From the NCBI GenBank assembly GCA_944377825.1, contig CALWGA010000040.1, positions 1 to 55,768 on the forward strand: a DNA stretch of 55,768 bases. The letters are read 5' to 3'. Positions 1,077 through 42,831 of the stretch are shown here, piece by piece. Origin of the DNA: an uncultured Clostridia bacterium (lineage in GTDB: Bacteria > Bacillota > Clostridia > Christensenellales > UBA1242). The notes below the pieces were generated by a model. It was not told the DNA's origin, did not search any database, and saw only the letters and a list, made by a program, of their open reading frames with translations. Numbering within the stretch: position 1 is the first letter of the stretch; each line of letters opens with the position of its first letter. The translations under genes were made by a program, and so were the position numbers.

Positions 1077-1095
1077 GACAAAGTGAATACAAAAA

Positions 1096-1155
1096 AAGGA
1101 AGAGTGAAGAGTTAAGGCGAACCGCTGGTTCGCAGTGAAGAACTGTGGAAGATTT
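1096..1155 (-). repeat. CTTCACT-heptamer/hairpin array, copy B (inverted)
   Basis: On +: AAGGAAG-AGTGAAG-AGTTAAG-[GCGAACC gct GGTTCGC]-AGTGAAG-AACTGTGGAAGATTT. Confidence 0.75.
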
Positions 1156-1221
1156 TAAAATAGAATATCATTTCTTTATTAAAACCACATTTCTCACAAC
1201 GCCACACTTTCAAACTCTCAA

Positions 1222-1484
1222 TCAATTTTTGATTTTGTGAGAGGAAGGGCTTTGCCCGGCGAGCATAAATCAAAAATCACAAATGTGGCACTCCGAAAAT
1301 GTTTATCATTTTTGGAGATAAGGAGTAAACAAACGAATGGTAAGTGATTTGACGTATGGCAAATCACGAAATGAAGTGCTGTTTACGACGCGGAAGAGGA
1401 ATGGGATGAGAAACCAACGGAGTAGCGGTTAGAAAAATTTTAATTTTTCGTGCCCGCGTTAAGCAAAGTTGGTGTCCGCACCAA
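1222..1484 (+). repeat. ~260-bp dispersed structured intergenic element, copy 1
   Basis: Aligns end to end with the reverse complement of 41431-41687. Contains several hairpins and ends in TTGGTG-TCCG-CACCAA. Confidence 0.9.
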
Positions 1485-4713: not shown

Positions 4714-4809
4714 AAATCTTTCCACCACTGAAAATCTTTGATTTTCCTTCACTGTGAACCCATGGTTCACCTTCACTAGAAGTCGCAAGACTTCTCTTCA
4801 CTTTTCACT
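4714..4809 (+). repeat. CTTCACT-heptamer/hairpin array, copy C
   Basis: AAATCTTTCCAC-CACT-[GAAAATC ttt GATTTTC]-CTTCACT-[GTGAACC cat GGTTCAC]-CTTCACT-[AGAAGTC gcaa GACTTCT]-CTTCACT-TTTCACT. Confidence 0.85.
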
Positions 4810-7678: not shown

Positions 7679-9577
7679 ATGGAAAACCTTTCAAAAGATA
7701 TTGTAGCAATCGCTGTTAAATATTTTAATATGAGTGAAGAAGAGGCGGTTTCTGCTCTTAATAAAGCGAGAAAAAGGGCTAATTATAGTGAAGAAATTTT
7801 ATATTTAATTTTAACTGCAGTCGAGCCATATTTTGAAAGATATATCAATGTGACGGCTAAAGAACTACAAAGAAAAATCGGAAGGGTGGCGTTTACCAAA
7901 ATAAATTATTCCGCTTTGCATGATAATAGCGAAACATCATCACAAGTTTGGTCAAGACTCAAGGACTTTTTTAAAGACACGAGTAATTATGGCATAAATC
8001 CATACGAAATTTTCTATTCTTCAGTTATCACAAACGCACATTTATTTACAAATAGAGAAGGAAATTTCAGTAATTATAAAGAGACAATATACAATTTTAA
8101 CGCTGTTTCAAGTGCAATAGAAAAACGATTAGGTTTGGCAAGTAAAAAGGTTGCTAATATGTATGAGAAATGCTCTTCGCTTTGCTATAAGGCTGACACG
8201 CTAAAGGTGAGAAATAATTACAGCACTATTAGAGAGTTTTTCTATGGCGATGACTACATATTAAGTATTATTGATGTTAAGGAAATTTTTAGAAATAATC
8301 CCTCTCTTTTCACTTGCTCCGATCGTCAAATAAGAAATGCCTTTTTCTATTTAACCGAAAAAGCAGAGATTTTTAAAACAAGGTTTGAAGATAGTCGAAA
8401 GGTCGGCGAGATTCTTCGTGAGTGGATTATGAGTAACTCCTCTGCTCTCACAATTAACGAACAATGTATGCGAGTCAAAGAGAAGAGAATTTATGACACT
8501 TTATCAAAAGTTTATCCGCAAGATAAGGTTATGAATATAATAAATTCCATATTTGAAAATCCAACCAGCATTTGCGCCATCAATAAAATCTCATCTGACT
8601 TTTTCTACGGCAAAACTGGTAACAACTATGTTGGTGTGATAAAGACGATTGCCTATTTTTTGGATAATTCTCAAAACGGCAAGCCAAAAGAGAATACATA
8701 TAACTATCTTTTGAACACCAAACTTCTCTATTCTGTCGACTATAAAAAACTCTTTGCCTTTCTTAAAAAGGTTAAGGAATATGATGAGAAAAACAAGACT
8801 GAACTTTTGAAATCGTTTACAGATAAGGGCGACGCCATATATCCATATTTCGAGAAATATAGCGATGAAGAGATAATTGAGAAACTTAGAGCGAATAAAA
8901 TTACATATCCTATCAAACTCTACAACATGACAAAAAATATGATTGCGCAAAAGTTTTATGAGATTTTTTCGCCATATCCAGAAGAGAGTTTTGCTTTTTT
9001 AGAAAAATTATTGCATGAGAATTACAATCATGAGGCTATCTGCAAAAATTTGGCTGAGCCTGAAGGATATCTTGACCTTATCATTGAGTCTAAGGATAGT
9101 CATCAAAGGGTGTTTTATACCGAGATGTTAAAAAGTGGCGTCGATAGCTTTTTGGGTGTGTGCCATGAGTATGAATACAAGTATATCAAAAAAAGCTTAA
9201 TAGAGGAAATGAAAGATTTTGACTCGCAGGTTGAATTTTTTATTTCTAACATCGATGACCTTTATGAGAAAGGCGTTGACTCGGCGAAGAAAAGGTATGA
9301 TAATATTGAAACTTTATACGCCACATTTAAGAAGAATACGGAAGAAAAGTTATCTAAAAATAATAATCCAATTCTAAGGCAAGAGCAGTTTTTAGAAAAG
9401 TTAGACGGCGTGATTGAAGGTATTAAAAAATCGCTTCCAGACAAGCAACTTTCCTTGTATGACACAAAAGTGAGTGAAGATGATGAAAAATATAAAACTC
9501 TTCAAATACTAAACGATGTTAAACATAGTTTAATGCGTAATTTTGGAAAAGATGAAAAAATAAAAGAAAAGGCTTGA
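7679..9577 (+). CDS. hypothetical alpha-helical repeat protein (mTERF-like repeats, putative C-terminal clamp-binding motif)
   Basis: 632-aa ORF with its own TTGACA-17-TAAAAT promoter, SD and terminator. Repeat-like segments such as VKEIFRNNPSLFTCSDRQIRNAFFYL; QLSLY near the C-terminus. The ORF is well supported; the fold call is tentative. Confidence 0.5.
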   Translation: MENLSKDIVAIAVKYFNMSEEEAVSALNKARKRANYSEEILYLILTAVEPYFERYINVTAKELQRKIGRVAFTKINYSALHDNSETSSQVWSRLKDFFKDTSNYGINPYEIFYSSVITNAHLFTNREGNFSNYKETIYNFNAVSSAIEKRLGLASKKVANMYEKCSSLCYKADTLKVRNNYSTIREFFYGDDYILSIIDVKEIFRNNPSLFTCSDRQIRNAFFYLTEKAEIFKTRFEDSRKVGEILREWIMSNSSALTINEQCMRVKEKRIYDTLSKVYPQDKVMNIINSIFENPTSICAINKISSDFFYGKTGNNYVGVIKTIAYFLDNSQNGKPKENTYNYLLNTKLLYSVDYKKLFAFLKKVKEYDEKNKTELLKSFTDKGDAIYPYFEKYSDEEIIEKLRANKITYPIKLYNMTKNMIAQKFYEIFSPYPEESFAFLEKLLHENYNHEAICKNLAEPEGYLDLIIESKDSHQRVFYTEMLKSGVDSFLGVCHEYEYKYIKKSLIEEMKDFDSQVEFFISNIDDLYEKGVDSAKKRYDNIETLYATFKKNTEEKLSKNNNPILRQEQFLEKLDGVIEGIKKSLPDKQLSLYDTKVSEDDEKYKTLQILNDVKHSLMRNFGKDEKIKEKA

Positions 9578-28098: not shown

Positions 28099-28191
28099 AA
28101 CAACCTATTTTAACATTTTTTACAAATATGTCAAAATAAATAAGGCAATTTACTTGACAAAATTTTGCTGTTATTTTATACTATCCATGTA

Positions 28192-28422
28192 AAAACGATG
28201 ATGAAAGACTAGTAGGTTTGTCATTTTTCCACAGAGAGCCCTTTTTGCTGAGATAGGGCGAAAAACACAAATTGAATTCACTTTCTAGTTGCTCCTTGAA
28301 CGGAAAACAAGTAGGGGATGTCGCGCGGGCAGGCGTAATTGCTTTAATAAGGTGCCTTTTGGCATGAAATTAGGTGGTACCACGATTTGATAATCGTCCT
28401 AATATTTTGGGGCGATTTTTTT
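28192..28422 (+). promoter_or_regulatory. Phe T-box riboswitch leader
   Basis: Downstream of TTGACA-17-TATACT. Stem I motifs AGAGA and GCTGAG; specifier GAA-TTC-A (Phe, 28277-28279); T-box AATTAGGTGGTACCACG; terminator AATCGTCCTAA..TTGGGGCGATT-TTTTT. Confidence 0.95.
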
Positions 28423-40431: not shown

Positions 40432-41430
40432 ATGGAAGATAGATTTATAACAAGCACAAAGAATTTTACTGATGCTGAGATTGAAACTTCGCTTCGACCA
40501 ACAAGCCTAGATCAATATGTTGGACAAGATAAAATTAAGGAAAGTTTGAAGGTCTACATTCAGGCGGCAAAGTCGCGTAAGGATGCACTCGACCACGTGC
40601 TTTTATATGGTCCACCAGGCTTAGGTAAGACAACACTTTCGCACATTATTGCGAAGGAACTAGGCTCGCAAATCAAAATCACATCAGGTCCTGCCATTGA
40701 GCATGCTGCCGACCTTGCGGCGATACTGACCAATCTTAACAAAAATGATGTTTTGTTTATCGACGAAATTCATAGGCTAAATAAGACCGTTGAGGAAATT
40801 CTCTATCCTGCCATGGAAGATTTCGCGCTTGATTTTATTGTCGGCAAAGGTCCATCGGCGAAGAATATGCGACTTAAAATTCAACCTTTCACGCTTATCG
40901 GCGCGACCACAAAGGCGGGTATGCTGACAAGTCCACTCCGCGATAGGTTTGGCGTTATCTGCAGGCTCGAATTATATTCAGACAAAGACCTACAAATCAT
41001 CATTAAGCGTTCGGCTGAGATTTTGAATATCAAAATTGACGAAAGTGCCAGCCTTGACATCGCAAAGCGTTCGCGCGGAACACCAAGAATTGCTAATCGT
41101 CTTTTAAAGCGTGTTAGAGATTACGCCGAAGTTTTGGGCAGTGGCGAGATAACAAAGGAGATAACCGACCAAGCGCTTGCAAAAATGGAAATTGACGAAC
41201 TTGGGCTTGACTTTATCGACAGAAAGATACTTGAAAGCATAATCTACAAATTCGGTGGCGGACCTGTGGGACTCGACACGCTGTCGGCGACCATTGGCGA
41301 AGATGCAGGCACGATTGAAGATGTCTATGAGCCATATTTGATGCAATTAGGATTTATTGCAAGAACCCCACGCGGGCGTATTGCAATGGAAAACGCATAT
41401 CATCATCTTGGACTAGACTACAACAAATGA
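40432..41430 (+). CDS. ruvB: Holliday junction helicase RuvB
   Basis: [42 protein letters not shown]. Confidence 0.99.
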
Positions 41431-41687
41431 TTGGTGCGGACACCAACTACGCTTTTACGCCGGCACGGAAAATTAAAAATTTTTCTAACGGTTGCTCCGA
41501 TGGTTTCGCAATCCTCTTCGGCGTCATAAACGGCACTTCATTTCGTGATTTGTCTTACACCAAATCACTTACCATTCGTTTGTTTACTCCTTATCTCCAA
41601 AAATGGCATTTTCGGAGTGCCACATTTTGAGATTTTTGATTTATGCTCGTTGAACACAGTTCTACACTTCGCAAAATCAAAAATTGA
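41431..41687 (-). repeat. ~260-bp dispersed structured intergenic element, copy 2 (inverted)
   Basis: Reverse complement matches 1222-1484; starts immediately after the ruvB stop codon. Confidence 0.9.
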
Positions 41688-41790
41688 ATAAATATAAACA
41701 AAAACACTTTAATATTATATTTAAACATAGAACAAAGCACAGTTTGTTACCAAGAATTAGGATTTTTTGATAGAATACAAAAGGAACATT

Positions 41791-42831
41791 ATGCAAAGAG
41801 AATTATTACGATCTACTTATCATTATGATTTGCCAGAGGAGCTTATTGCTCAAACTCCGGTTGAACCACGCGACTCGTCGCGTCTTTTATGCTATAATCG
41901 AAAGACCGAAAAGGTGCAAGACCTACATTTTTATGATATCTACAACTTTTTGAATAAGGGCGATGTTTTGGTTGTCAATAACACGCGTGTTTTGCCAGCT
42001 AGACTTTATGGCTTTAAGCATACTGGCGCGAAAATTGAGGTGCTTCTTCAAAAGCGGATAGATTTGACACATTGGGAAGTGATTGCAAAACCATTTAAGC
42101 GTTTGGATGAAGGAACAGAAATTGTTTTTAACGAAAACATTTTTGCCGTTGTTGTTAGTAAGGAAACTTTTGGTTCTTGTGTCATTGAATTTAAGTATGA
42201 CCTAAAAAAGACCTTTGAAGAGCATTTGATGGAGATAGGCACTGTTCCACTTCCGCCATACATAAAGGAAAAGTTGAAAGACCCAGAGCGCTATCAAACT
42301 GTCTATGCCAAAGTGGAAGGTTCAAGTGCAGCGCCAACTGCGGGGTTACACTTTACTAAAGACTTATTAGCAAGATTGAAAGATAAAGGTGTAGAGATTT
42401 GTGAAGTTTTGCTCCATGTTGGACTCGGCACATTTAGACCGGTTAAGGAAGATAATATTTTGGAACATAAAATGCACAGCGAATATATTGAGGTGTCCAA
42501 AGAGGTGGCAAATAGACTTAATAAGGCAAAACAAGAGGGTCGGCGAGTTATCGCTGTCGGAACGACCTCAGTTAGAGTTTTGGAAAGTGCAAGTGACAAA
42601 ATAGGTCACATTCTTCCAGTCAAAAAAGAGACGGACATCTTCATTTATCCGCCATATAAATTTAAGTTTGTGGATGCACTCATCACCAACTTCCACTTAC
42701 CAGAGTCGACTCTTATTATGCTTGTTTCTGCCTTTATCGGCGACATTGATAAAACGCTTGAATTATATAAACACGCAGTAAATAGTCGGTATCGTTTCTT
42801 CAGTTTTGGCGATGCCATGTTTATTGAATAA
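41791..42831 (+). CDS. queA: S-adenosylmethionine:tRNA ribosyltransferase-isomerase
   Basis: YDLPEELIAQ, PLPPYI, RYQTVYA, AAPTAGLHF, VGTTSVR, TNFHLP, RFFSFGDAM. Confidence 0.99.
   Translation: MQRELLRSTYHYDLPEELIAQTPVEPRDSSRLLCYNRKTEKVQDLHFYDIYNFLNKGDVLVVNNTRVLPARLYGFKHTGAKIEVLLQKRIDLTHWEVIAKPFKRLDEGTEIVFNENIFAVVVSKETFGSCVIEFKYDLKKTFEEHLMEIGTVPLPPYIKEKLKDPERYQTVYAKVEGSSAAPTAGLHFTKDLLARLKDKGVEICEVLLHVGLGTFRPVKEDNILEHKMHSEYIEVSKEVANRLNKAKQEGRRVIAVGTTSVRVLESASDKIGHILPVKKETDIFIYPPYKFKFVDALITNFHLPESTLIMLVSAFIGDIDKTLELYKHAVNSRYRFFSFGDAMFIE

Follow-up and report, generated by a model that had tools for sequence, protein, structure and literature searches.

A modular interspersed repeat with a strand-specific fold, probably non-autonomous, in one genus of small-genome gut Clostridia

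REP sequences and bacterial interspersed mosaic elements (BIMEs) are mosaics of hairpin modules that lie in short intergenic spacers, mostly at gene ends, show compensatory changes in their stems, and have neither terminal inverted repeats (TIRs) nor target-site duplications (TSDs). Elements derived from IS200/IS605 also lack TIRs and TSDs and possess strand-specific hairpin ends. The BOX repeats of Streptococcus pneumoniae are small, non-coding intergenic repeats with a modular boxA-boxB(n)-boxC organization (Croucher et al. 2011, PMC3049150); the same paper reports that SPRITE repeats are enriched at the 3′ ends of convergent genes and carries a remark on BIMEs as attenuators. In Clostridium paradoxum, 16S genes are known to carry heterogeneous intervening sequences (PMC4859166). 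Here, we describe a family of dispersed, structured repeats in an uncultured Clostridia bacterium (Christensenellales; UBA1242) and its relatives. It was first seen as two copies, named A and B, in a stretch of 55,768 nucleotides (positions 1–55,768 of contig CALWGA010000040.1, hereafter the window). A preliminary description took them to be either a non-coding RNA or a non-autonomous element moved through single-stranded DNA (ssDNA) or RNA. The second alternative proves the better one, and the first, as an independent RNA gene, is not supported: at odds somewhat better than even (roughly 0.55), the copies belong to a non-autonomous, modular, BOX/BIME-like interspersed mosaic repeat of one genus of small-genome gut Clostridia. 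A limited literature search under the genus name returned nothing on such repeats.

Copy A (1222–1484, plus strand) is alignable over its full length to copy B (41687–41431, minus strand), with a mean column identity of 85% over 355 alignment columns, unrelated flanks included, and with sharp borders at TCAATTTTTG on one end and CACCAA on the other. The end-to-end alignment and the compensatory stem changes noted from the letters alone are thus confirmed. The idea of a discrete 260-nt unit in two copies is not, as the element consists of three modules, M1, M2, and M3, present in many copies. In copy A, M1 (1222–1280) is a long hairpin of 59 nt, ATTTTTGATTT...AAATCAAAAAT, whose inner hairpin covaries; M2 (1281–1391) is nested, consists of two hairpins, and stands in the place of a 9-nt linker that otherwise joins M1 to M3; M3 (1392–1484) is a conserved domain of ~90 nt that reads GGAAGAGGA...GAAACC...TAGCGGTTAG, a variable hairpin, and CGTG.CCGCG...GGTG. 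In copy B, all on the minus strand, M1 spans 41629–41687 (located by sequence alignment and nhmmer), M2 spans 41520–41628, and M3 spans 41431–41519, beginning right after the ruvB stop codon TGA (41428–41430) and running antisense to ruvB.

The window is contig C40 of assembly G000, which has 852,688 bases in 55 contigs and is 75.8% complete. BLAST of the element against G000 gives 58 matches that cover separate thirds of the query, in agreement with the earlier view of a multi-copy, dispersed element. Iterated nhmmer profiles recover 101 module matches (25 M1, 52 M2-type, and 24 M3), with module sizes of 59 nt for M1, about 110 nt for M2, and about 90 nt for M3; the M2 profile broadened to a long-hairpin superfamily, which we divided into M2a and M2b. 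Chaining neighbouring matches yields 70 elements. M2 stands alone in 41 of them, and the commonest form containing both M1 and M3 is M1-M3 (15 elements). M1-M2-M3 occurs four times, in both window copies and at C48:3459–3716 and C12:5243–5496. The remainder are M3 alone (four), M1 alone (three), M1-M2 (two), and M2-M3 (one), the last two forms being truncated by contig ends; at least seven elements in all are located at contig ends. Alignment of the copies places the 9-nt linker of the M1-M3 units where M2 lies in the longer form, and contigs from other copies skip the M2 of copy B with 5 or 9 other letters (joints 41519→41627/41631). The build is therefore BOX-like, with constant outer modules (M1-M3 in 15 elements, M1-M2-M3 in four) and an optional inner one, as also found at an orthologous site described below. 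Tandem multiple M2 modules between M1 and M3 were not seen.

A self-comparison of G000 finds 128 blocks with at least three partners, amounting to 20,885 nt or 2.4% of the assembly. Four of these blocks lie in the window: 415–494, 1094–1489, 4771–4809, and 41421–41698. The second has up to 25 partners, 18 partner alignments covering 1091–1281, and it extends upstream of M1 into a further module, M0 (1094–1221, plus strand), which is rich in GTGAAGAG-type words and small hairpins and belongs to the same inserted mosaic; the repeat block of copy A consequently begins at 1094 and not at 1222. In other copies, the flank next to M1 is made up of further modules in varying combinations. M0-type arrays, in which GTGAAGAG-type words alternate with small G+C hairpins, are found at 1094–1221, at C24:7510–7700, and at 415–494, the last being an M0-like block of the same mosaic system with eight partners and no assigned strand. 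The module map places further copies of M1 and M2 on contig C50 (2761–3137 and 7885–8101). Long M2b hairpins stand convergent to tRNA genes, 3–10 nt from their 3′ ends, at C6:823–915, C10:33441–33534, C14:132–226, C18:18049–18141, C42:13306–13405, and C33:8342–8432; these copies are flanked by an A run and a T run and resemble two-way terminators.

Most of the stems proposed for the window copies stand. The ATTTTTGATTT/AAATCAAAAAT stem is present in A and B, with the exchange of GGGC/GCCC for GAAC/GTTC in its inner hairpin, and the CTCCGAAAATG/CATTTTTGGAG and GTGATTTG/CAAATCAC stems are found in both. The terminal TTGGTG-TCCG-CACCAA hairpin also exists in both copies but is a minority variant, present in 3 of 13 aligned M1-M3 units; in the G000 consensus fold, GTTGGTG instead has AACCAAC as its partner. 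The GGCAC/GTGCC stem, thought to enclose the structure, links M2 to M3 and appears in neither the minimum-free-energy fold nor the consensus fold; it cannot be general because 15 of the 19 units running from M1 to M3 have no M2. The predicted fold of copy A has an energy of −81.2 kcal/mol, whereas shuffled sequences give −64.6 ± 5.1 (z −3.25); the reverse complement of copy A also folds beyond shuffles (z −5.5). As first reported, the copies share no open reading frame (ORF): a 33-codon frame of copy A ends after six codons in copy B. A leader peptide encoded by this frame was considered and rejected on account of that truncation and of the changes in M3 stem length that shift the frame between species. 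Equally in line with the preliminary description, 15 M1-M3 and seven M2-bearing copies of G000, aligned with 40-nt flanks and judged by eye, display neither the TIRs nor the TSDs of a classical miniature inverted-repeat transposable element, and no conserved target word was seen at their ends.

Three observations bear on the fold itself. First, 44 pairs make up the consensus fold of the 13 M1-M3 units from G000, and 15 of these pairs change on both sides. A covariance model (R1) built from these units gave a cross-species alignment of 37 matches (36 distinct sequences) from 29 other species plus G000, in which 35 of the 44 pairs undergo compensatory change and 96.2% of the cells pair, compared with 74.5% in shuffled alignments and 38–54% when partners are slid by one to three columns. 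None of 500 shuffles reached the observed value of any of five pairing measures, and in M1 helix 1 both sides have changed in all 14 pairs. Selection on structure, as originally proposed, is thus upheld, the covariation persisting with more copies aligned. Second, G:U cells outnumber A:C cells 63 to 5 overall and 45 to 1 inside M3; the M2 families behave alike (41 to 8 in M2a and 78 to 4 in M2b). Since an A:C cell on this strand is a G:U cell on the opposite one, the excess identifies the conserved fold as that of the strand first read, which agrees with the single-stranded form envisaged at the outset. Third, M3 has conserved letters that are unpaired. The domain takes the form GGA(A/G)G(A/G)GGA ... 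UGGGA ... GAAACC, followed by a stem, UAGCGGUUAG, and a free-varying hairpin, and then by CGUG(U/C)CCGCG ..., a stem, and GGUG ... CCCA; across the 29 species, the unpaired words are conserved and the apical stem has a different sequence in nearly every one. M1 and M3 are independent domains in the consensus fold, the 5′ hairpin is swapped for an unrelated hairpin in some species, and the cross-species alignment has no consistent T tract 3′ of M3.

The site of copy B allows a comparison of filled and empty states. Among 28 relatives in the genus, the spacer between ruvB and queA measures 10–64 nt in 17 and is longer in 11 (two further loci have no queA). In G046, with a RuvB 95% identical to that of G000, the site is empty: between the stop codon and the start of queA lies just a ribosome-binding site. 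It is also empty in a metagenome relative (RuvB 96% identical), where the stop codon and 26 nt precede the queA ATG; a contig in run X10 from such a relative joins 41406 directly to 41779. In G076 (RuvB 98.8% identical), an M1-M3 unit without M2 sits right after the ruvB stop, followed by an M0-type module, and G000 carries M1-M2-M3 and then unrelated AT-rich DNA at the same site. The RuvB C-terminus is equally long in filled and empty genomes, which places the block after the stop codon and not within ruvB. Taken together, the sequences indicate that the block entered in the common line of G000 and G076, and that its make-up has changed since then, among other things in M2 content and M3 subtype. 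Model matches were found in one of 80 metagenome ruvB loci, elsewhere in that locus. Other contents also occur at this position: the spacer of G018 (L048) carries an extra small gene of ~200 codons with a run of eight G, and other relatives have 550–670 nt between the two genes.

The copy number of the repeat is lineage-specific. R1 matches 54 of 100 other species of the genus, with 1–23 copies per species, and has no match in 46; the highest numbers are found in G076 (23), G042 (17), G062 (15), G106 (12), and G078 (11). BLAST alone gives weak partial matches in relatives, whose units were recovered by the covariance model. In 150 genomes drawn from the order, R1 matches none of 146 from 94 other genera and none of four congeners. 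An exact pattern of the M3 core occurs at no fewer than 117 loci (at least) in a species-level genome collection, nearly all in metagenome-assembled genomes (MAGs) with titles such as uncultured Clostridia, Christensenellaceae, and Eubacteriales, one being Candidatus Caccovivens faecavium, and with chicken, rabbit, deer, and mouse guts as sources; a few matches in unrelated phyla are probably due to chance. Sequencing runs containing the window are mostly labelled chicken gut metagenome. On this sampling of genomes, the family appears restricted to one genus of small-genome gut Clostridia.

A mosaic repeat is the best fit to these data because the element is modular, has a lineage-specific copy number, and was gained at an orthologous site, and also because, as detailed below, copies lie in either orientation, avoid promoter-bearing gaps, and have no promoter of their own. 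The likeness to BOX, as that family is portrayed in PMC3049150, extends to a middle module that is optional without upsetting the outer folds, to tight folding, to co-transcription with neighbours, and to confinement within a narrow clade. The ends differ: those of BOX are mutually pairing TIRs resembling ISSpn2 according to the same source, whereas M1 and M3 are separate hairpins whose outer modules do not pair in this way, and no insertion sequence with similar ends was found. The present fold is, moreover, strand-specific, and the unpaired bases of M3 are conserved across 29 species; the comparison is one of features, no similarity of sequence having been tested for or seen. REP sequences and BIMEs share with our element the mosaic of hairpin modules in short spacers, the compensatory stems, and the lack of TIRs and TSDs. 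The present unit is nevertheless much longer than REP or REPIN (155–260 nt), is not a simple palindrome, and resides in a Firmicute; in contrast to the REPIN-RAYT systems of Proteobacteria, G000 and four high-copy relatives, all draft assemblies, yielded no RAYT or Y1 gene.

The basic unit comprises the M1 5′ hairpin, the 9-nt linker, and the irregular hairpin domain M3, with M3 forming one end of the block. Variable modules such as M0 and M2b are found on the M1 side, and in the window copies M2 has taken the place of the linker. According to our model, blocks would land in the very short spacers of a compact genome and then fill them, and would also land in the spacers of tRNA and rRNA operons and in the helix-6 loop of 16S rRNA, sites at which a self-folding insert may do little harm. 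They would lie in either orientation and be transcribed passively with their neighbours. The conservation of only one strand's fold suggests an element that is copied or recognized as a single strand, RNA or ssDNA, of the strand first read, and we infer that the repeat spreads through such a single-stranded intermediate with M3 as the recognized end. The modular build, the filled and empty states of one orthologous site, the covariation, the strand asymmetry, the distribution, and the context are direct observations; the mechanism of mobility, the single-stranded intermediate, and any effect of the blocks on host transcripts are inferred.

Ribosomal and transfer RNA operons also harbour copies. 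In contig C24 of G000, the 16S gene starts at 8501, with M1 and M2b just upstream in the sense orientation, and ~135 nt after the gene start the helix-6 loop, within variable region 1 (V1), holds a sense M1-M3 unit, inside which the contig ends (C24:8501–8757). In G141:C3 (L260) and G133:C34 (L284), a whole M1-M3 unit occupies helix 6 and the 16S sequence continues on both sides, so that extra sequence in a variable helix is flanked by rRNA, as in an rRNA intervening sequence. The Rfam small-subunit (SSU) rRNA model stretches its first 142 positions over 353 nt of G141, and the helix-6 loop is short in four other species. G086 has the same insert, as judged by coordinates, and all four inserts are in the sense orientation. 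A second 16S start in G000 (C31:1–349, minus strand) bears an insert of ~170 nt in helix 6 that is unrelated to M1-M3, and the two operons thus differ in V1. The 16S inserts of C. paradoxum, as presented in PMC4859166, are similar in being extra variable-helix sequences that differ between operons of one genome; they are unlike the present insert, which copies a genome-wide dispersed repeat, a situation for which a limited literature search found no description. Beyond helix 6, a sense M1-M3 unit ends 6–9 nt before the 16S 5′ end in G085 (L285), G163 (L273), G078 (L267), and G137 (L261), and coordinates place G112:C16 and G086:C2 in the same position. In G043:C12 (L095, locus 894–1796), a sense unit stands between the fourth and fifth of six arrayed tRNAs and ends 3 nt before the next.

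These placements are among the grounds for the main rival explanation, in which processing of longer transcripts releases M3 and the 5′ hairpin as a functional RNA domain. A stable RNA, or else a protein-binding or processing signal, would then be supplied by those copies that lie in sense within rRNA or tRNA operons or within the leader or trailer of an mRNA, and antisense copies would be by-products. The uniform sense orientation of the helix-6 inserts and the close approach to 16S and tRNA 5′ ends would be expected on this account, as would unpaired bases conserved beside a stem that varies freely in 29 species, the 45-to-1 excess of G:U in M3, and the sharing of some positions between species. 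What it accommodates poorly is that 19 of the 38 copies between tandem genes are antisense, as is copy B, that congeners possess anywhere from 0 to 23 copies with 46 of 100 species having no match, and that no Rfam family is matched. We consider this explanation unlikely, if worth keeping in mind, and favour the mosaic repeat.

The genomic context was surveyed for 69 model matches in 29 other species, three weak second matches being excluded and neighbours being called with ARAGORN and a simple rule for long ORFs. Of the copies that stand between tandem genes, 19 are antisense and 19 sense; a further 19 lie between convergent genes, one lies between divergent genes, and 11 have one neighbour missing. 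The balance of 19 to 19 argues against a need for transcription in a given sense at the present sites. Selfish repeats of the pneumococcus have been reported to be nearly absent from divergent gaps as well (PMC3049150). The two ends of the unit are placed differently: at most 20 nt separate the M3 end from the adjoining gene in 37 of 62 cases, 29 of which involve the 3′ end of a convergent gene or tRNA, compared with 4 of 65 for the M1 end, and in G000 the M3 end abuts the 3′ end of a convergent gene or tRNA in 15 of 22 assessable cases. We read this as the outcome of tiny ancestral spacers that the inserted block now fills, with M3 as its terminal module; special targeting flush with the stop codon was considered, but tiny spacers and a terminal M3 account for the pattern better. 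A lagging-strand rule of the IS608 kind was also rejected, given that the window copies are opposed among co-directional genes and that copies between tandem genes divide 19 to 19.

An abutting end could also mark a service to the host, and one rival holds that the modules are cis-acting elements (terminators, attenuators, or 3′ stabilizers) duplicated to gene ends, as has been proposed for SPRITE and REP. SPRITE offers a precedent in its reported enrichment at the 3′ ends of convergent genes (PMC3049150), mirrored here by 19 convergent against one divergent location and by the M2b copies that adjoin tRNAs, which look like terminators and stand between an A run and a T run. The contact of M3 or M2b ends with stop codons or tRNA 3′ ends points the same way, and both strands fold well. 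Unlike what such a role implies, and unlike SPRITE, M1-M3 has no uridine-rich tail, with no consistent T tract past M3, and in most abutting cases the conserved fold belongs to the strand antisense to the upstream gene. Most relatives, furthermore, have a ruvB-queA spacer of 10–60 nt and no element, and elements also lie inside 16S. A cis-acting origin is accordingly doubtful.

The family matches no described RNA or transposon family. Rfam 15 at the gathering score, applied to the whole window, yields just a T-box, which sustains the preliminary statement that no known family could be assigned. At E ≤ 10, positions 1000–1700 of the window give only chance miRNA matches outside the element; eight G000 loci give tRNA only, and eight loci from other species at E ≤ 0.1 give only tRNA and SSU rRNA, with no IS605-associated RNA motif. 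Integron attC sites, which the element resembles in a folded strand antisense to the upstream gene and in a variable terminal hairpin, were set aside without a search for an integrase, as the AAC...GTT words are unconserved across species and the neighbours are housekeeping genes and tRNAs. The search for mobilizing genes covered G000 and the four high-copy relatives G076, G062, G106, and G042; these are draft assemblies, from which repeats and insertion sequences are often missing, so that absence of a gene from them is not proof. They contain no match to the Y1 transposase (PF01797), to TnpB (PF07282, with a positive control that matched in 8 of 14), or to reverse transcriptase (PF00078), which leaves a retroelement-borne origin without its enzyme there. 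IS110 and DDE_Tnp_1 likewise gave no match in G000 and the high-copy relatives scanned. The scan with PF04986 is uninformative, its positive control having stayed silent everywhere. One rve gene is found, in G000 only and with no modules nearby, and large serine recombinases are found in three of the five genomes (G076, G062, and G106) and in neither G000 nor G042. A single IS200-like Y1 gene lies beside a tRNA in G078 (C121:498–854, L102), a MAG with 5% contamination; its contig is 2.35 kb long and holds no M1, M2, or M3. The strand-specific hairpins and the lack of TIRs and TSDs do recall IS200/IS605-derived palindromes. Apart from the G078 gene, however, no TnpA(Y1) or TnpB was found in the scanned genomes and no conserved target word was seen, and the suggested link to IS200/IS605 or REPIN is thus not borne out.

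Several points weigh against a mobile mosaic repeat. The first is this want of a mobilizing enzyme among the scanned families in the draft assemblies. The second is that no polymorphism of presence and absence was seen within a species: contigs of three other studies all retain the element at ruvB-queA, and the best metagenome matches to RuvB, at 96% and 95% identity, include none that is conspecific. Current mobility is therefore unproven. Some sites are, in addition, shared by several species, for example upstream of the orthologue of C12_12165 and between the C37 and C50 neighbours. A host function would also be compatible with M3, whose unpaired bases are conserved. Lastly, the cross-species alignment was fitted to the model and so favours structure, although two things speak for a real covariation signal: the slid-partner control and the large number of pair types in each column.

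The missing enzyme would be explained by a more radical proposal, in which M3 is a new structured-RNA class able to promote its own dispersal. Its master copies would be those in sense within rRNA and tRNA operons, the 16S leader and the helix-6 loop included; transcribed at very high level and excised by normal processing, they would seed insertions at gene ends as folded RNA or as ssDNA, with no classical transposase. Such a scheme would also account for the conservation of one strand's fold alongside residents in either orientation. We regard it as speculative and improbable. The interspersed mosaic repeat remains our preferred reading, and in several respects it goes beyond an ordinary one: its fold is strand-specific, M3 has unpaired bases that are conserved, no known transposase was found with it, and copies occupy helix 6 of 16S rRNA as well as the spacers of rRNA and tRNA operons.

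The last rival concerns how the copies are transcribed. A contig from an RNA library spans the interior of ruvB through the entire copy B without a difference, which is compatible with co-transcription of copy B and ruvB, although contigs, the form of all four runs used, reveal neither the strand, the ends, nor the level of an RNA and do not prove transcription. Both the RNA and the DNA libraries have roughly ten times more depth over the element, a multi-copy effect, and the contigs of the RNA run leave 41713–41795 uncovered, a gap that carries no information. Despite the strong strand-specific covariation and the terminator-like scan matches at the TTGGTG/CACCAA hairpin of both window copies, it is most improbable that the copies are independent genes of a multi-copy small-RNA family, each with its own promoter and terminator: promoter-like sites lie upstream of M1 in 23 of 93 copies, against 23.3 ± 3.7 in shuffled sequence and 17 on the opposite strand, scans found none upstream of either window copy on the element strand, M3 is followed by no consistent T tract, only a minority of units have the terminal hairpin, antisense and sense copies are equally frequent between tandem genes, and others sit inside 16S and tRNA arrays.

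The surroundings of the window copies are otherwise those of ordinary genes. Eight nucleotides past the M3 end of copy A, a promoter-like site on the plus strand (1492–1520, TTTACA-17-TATAAT with TG, 11 of 12 consensus letters) precedes the downstream gene, and it lies only 8 nt ahead of the first ATG of an ORF for an ArsP_2-like permease; judging from this spacing, translation probably starts at a later ATG, or else the mRNA has almost no leader. Copy B is bordered on the left by ruvB (40432–41430, plus strand; Pfam RuvB_N, AAA_lid_4, and RuvB_C) and on the right by queA (41791–42831, plus strand; Pfam Queuosine_synth, E 1.3e-136). The rest of the insert between them (41688–41790, plus strand) is AT-rich and non-repeated and contains a promoter-like site for queA, TTACCA-18-TAGAAT, at 41747–41776, just past the copy B block. 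The T-box mentioned above is a full-length leader at 28189–28404 (plus strand), with 108.5 bits against a gathering score of 93.

Good descriptions of small interspersed repeats exist for a few cultured pathogens, but there are hardly any for uncultured gut Clostridia whose genomes are reduced. The present family is found in an organism of ~1 Mb whose spacers are otherwise trimmed to 10–60 nt and which nonetheless spends 2.4% of its assembly on repeats. Its insertion into 16S helix 6 lengthens and diversifies the V1 region used in amplicon surveys, and the repeat is a likely cause of assembly breaks at rRNA operons and at many other places. If the family does spread through RNA or ssDNA without a classical transposase, this would constitute a new mechanism.

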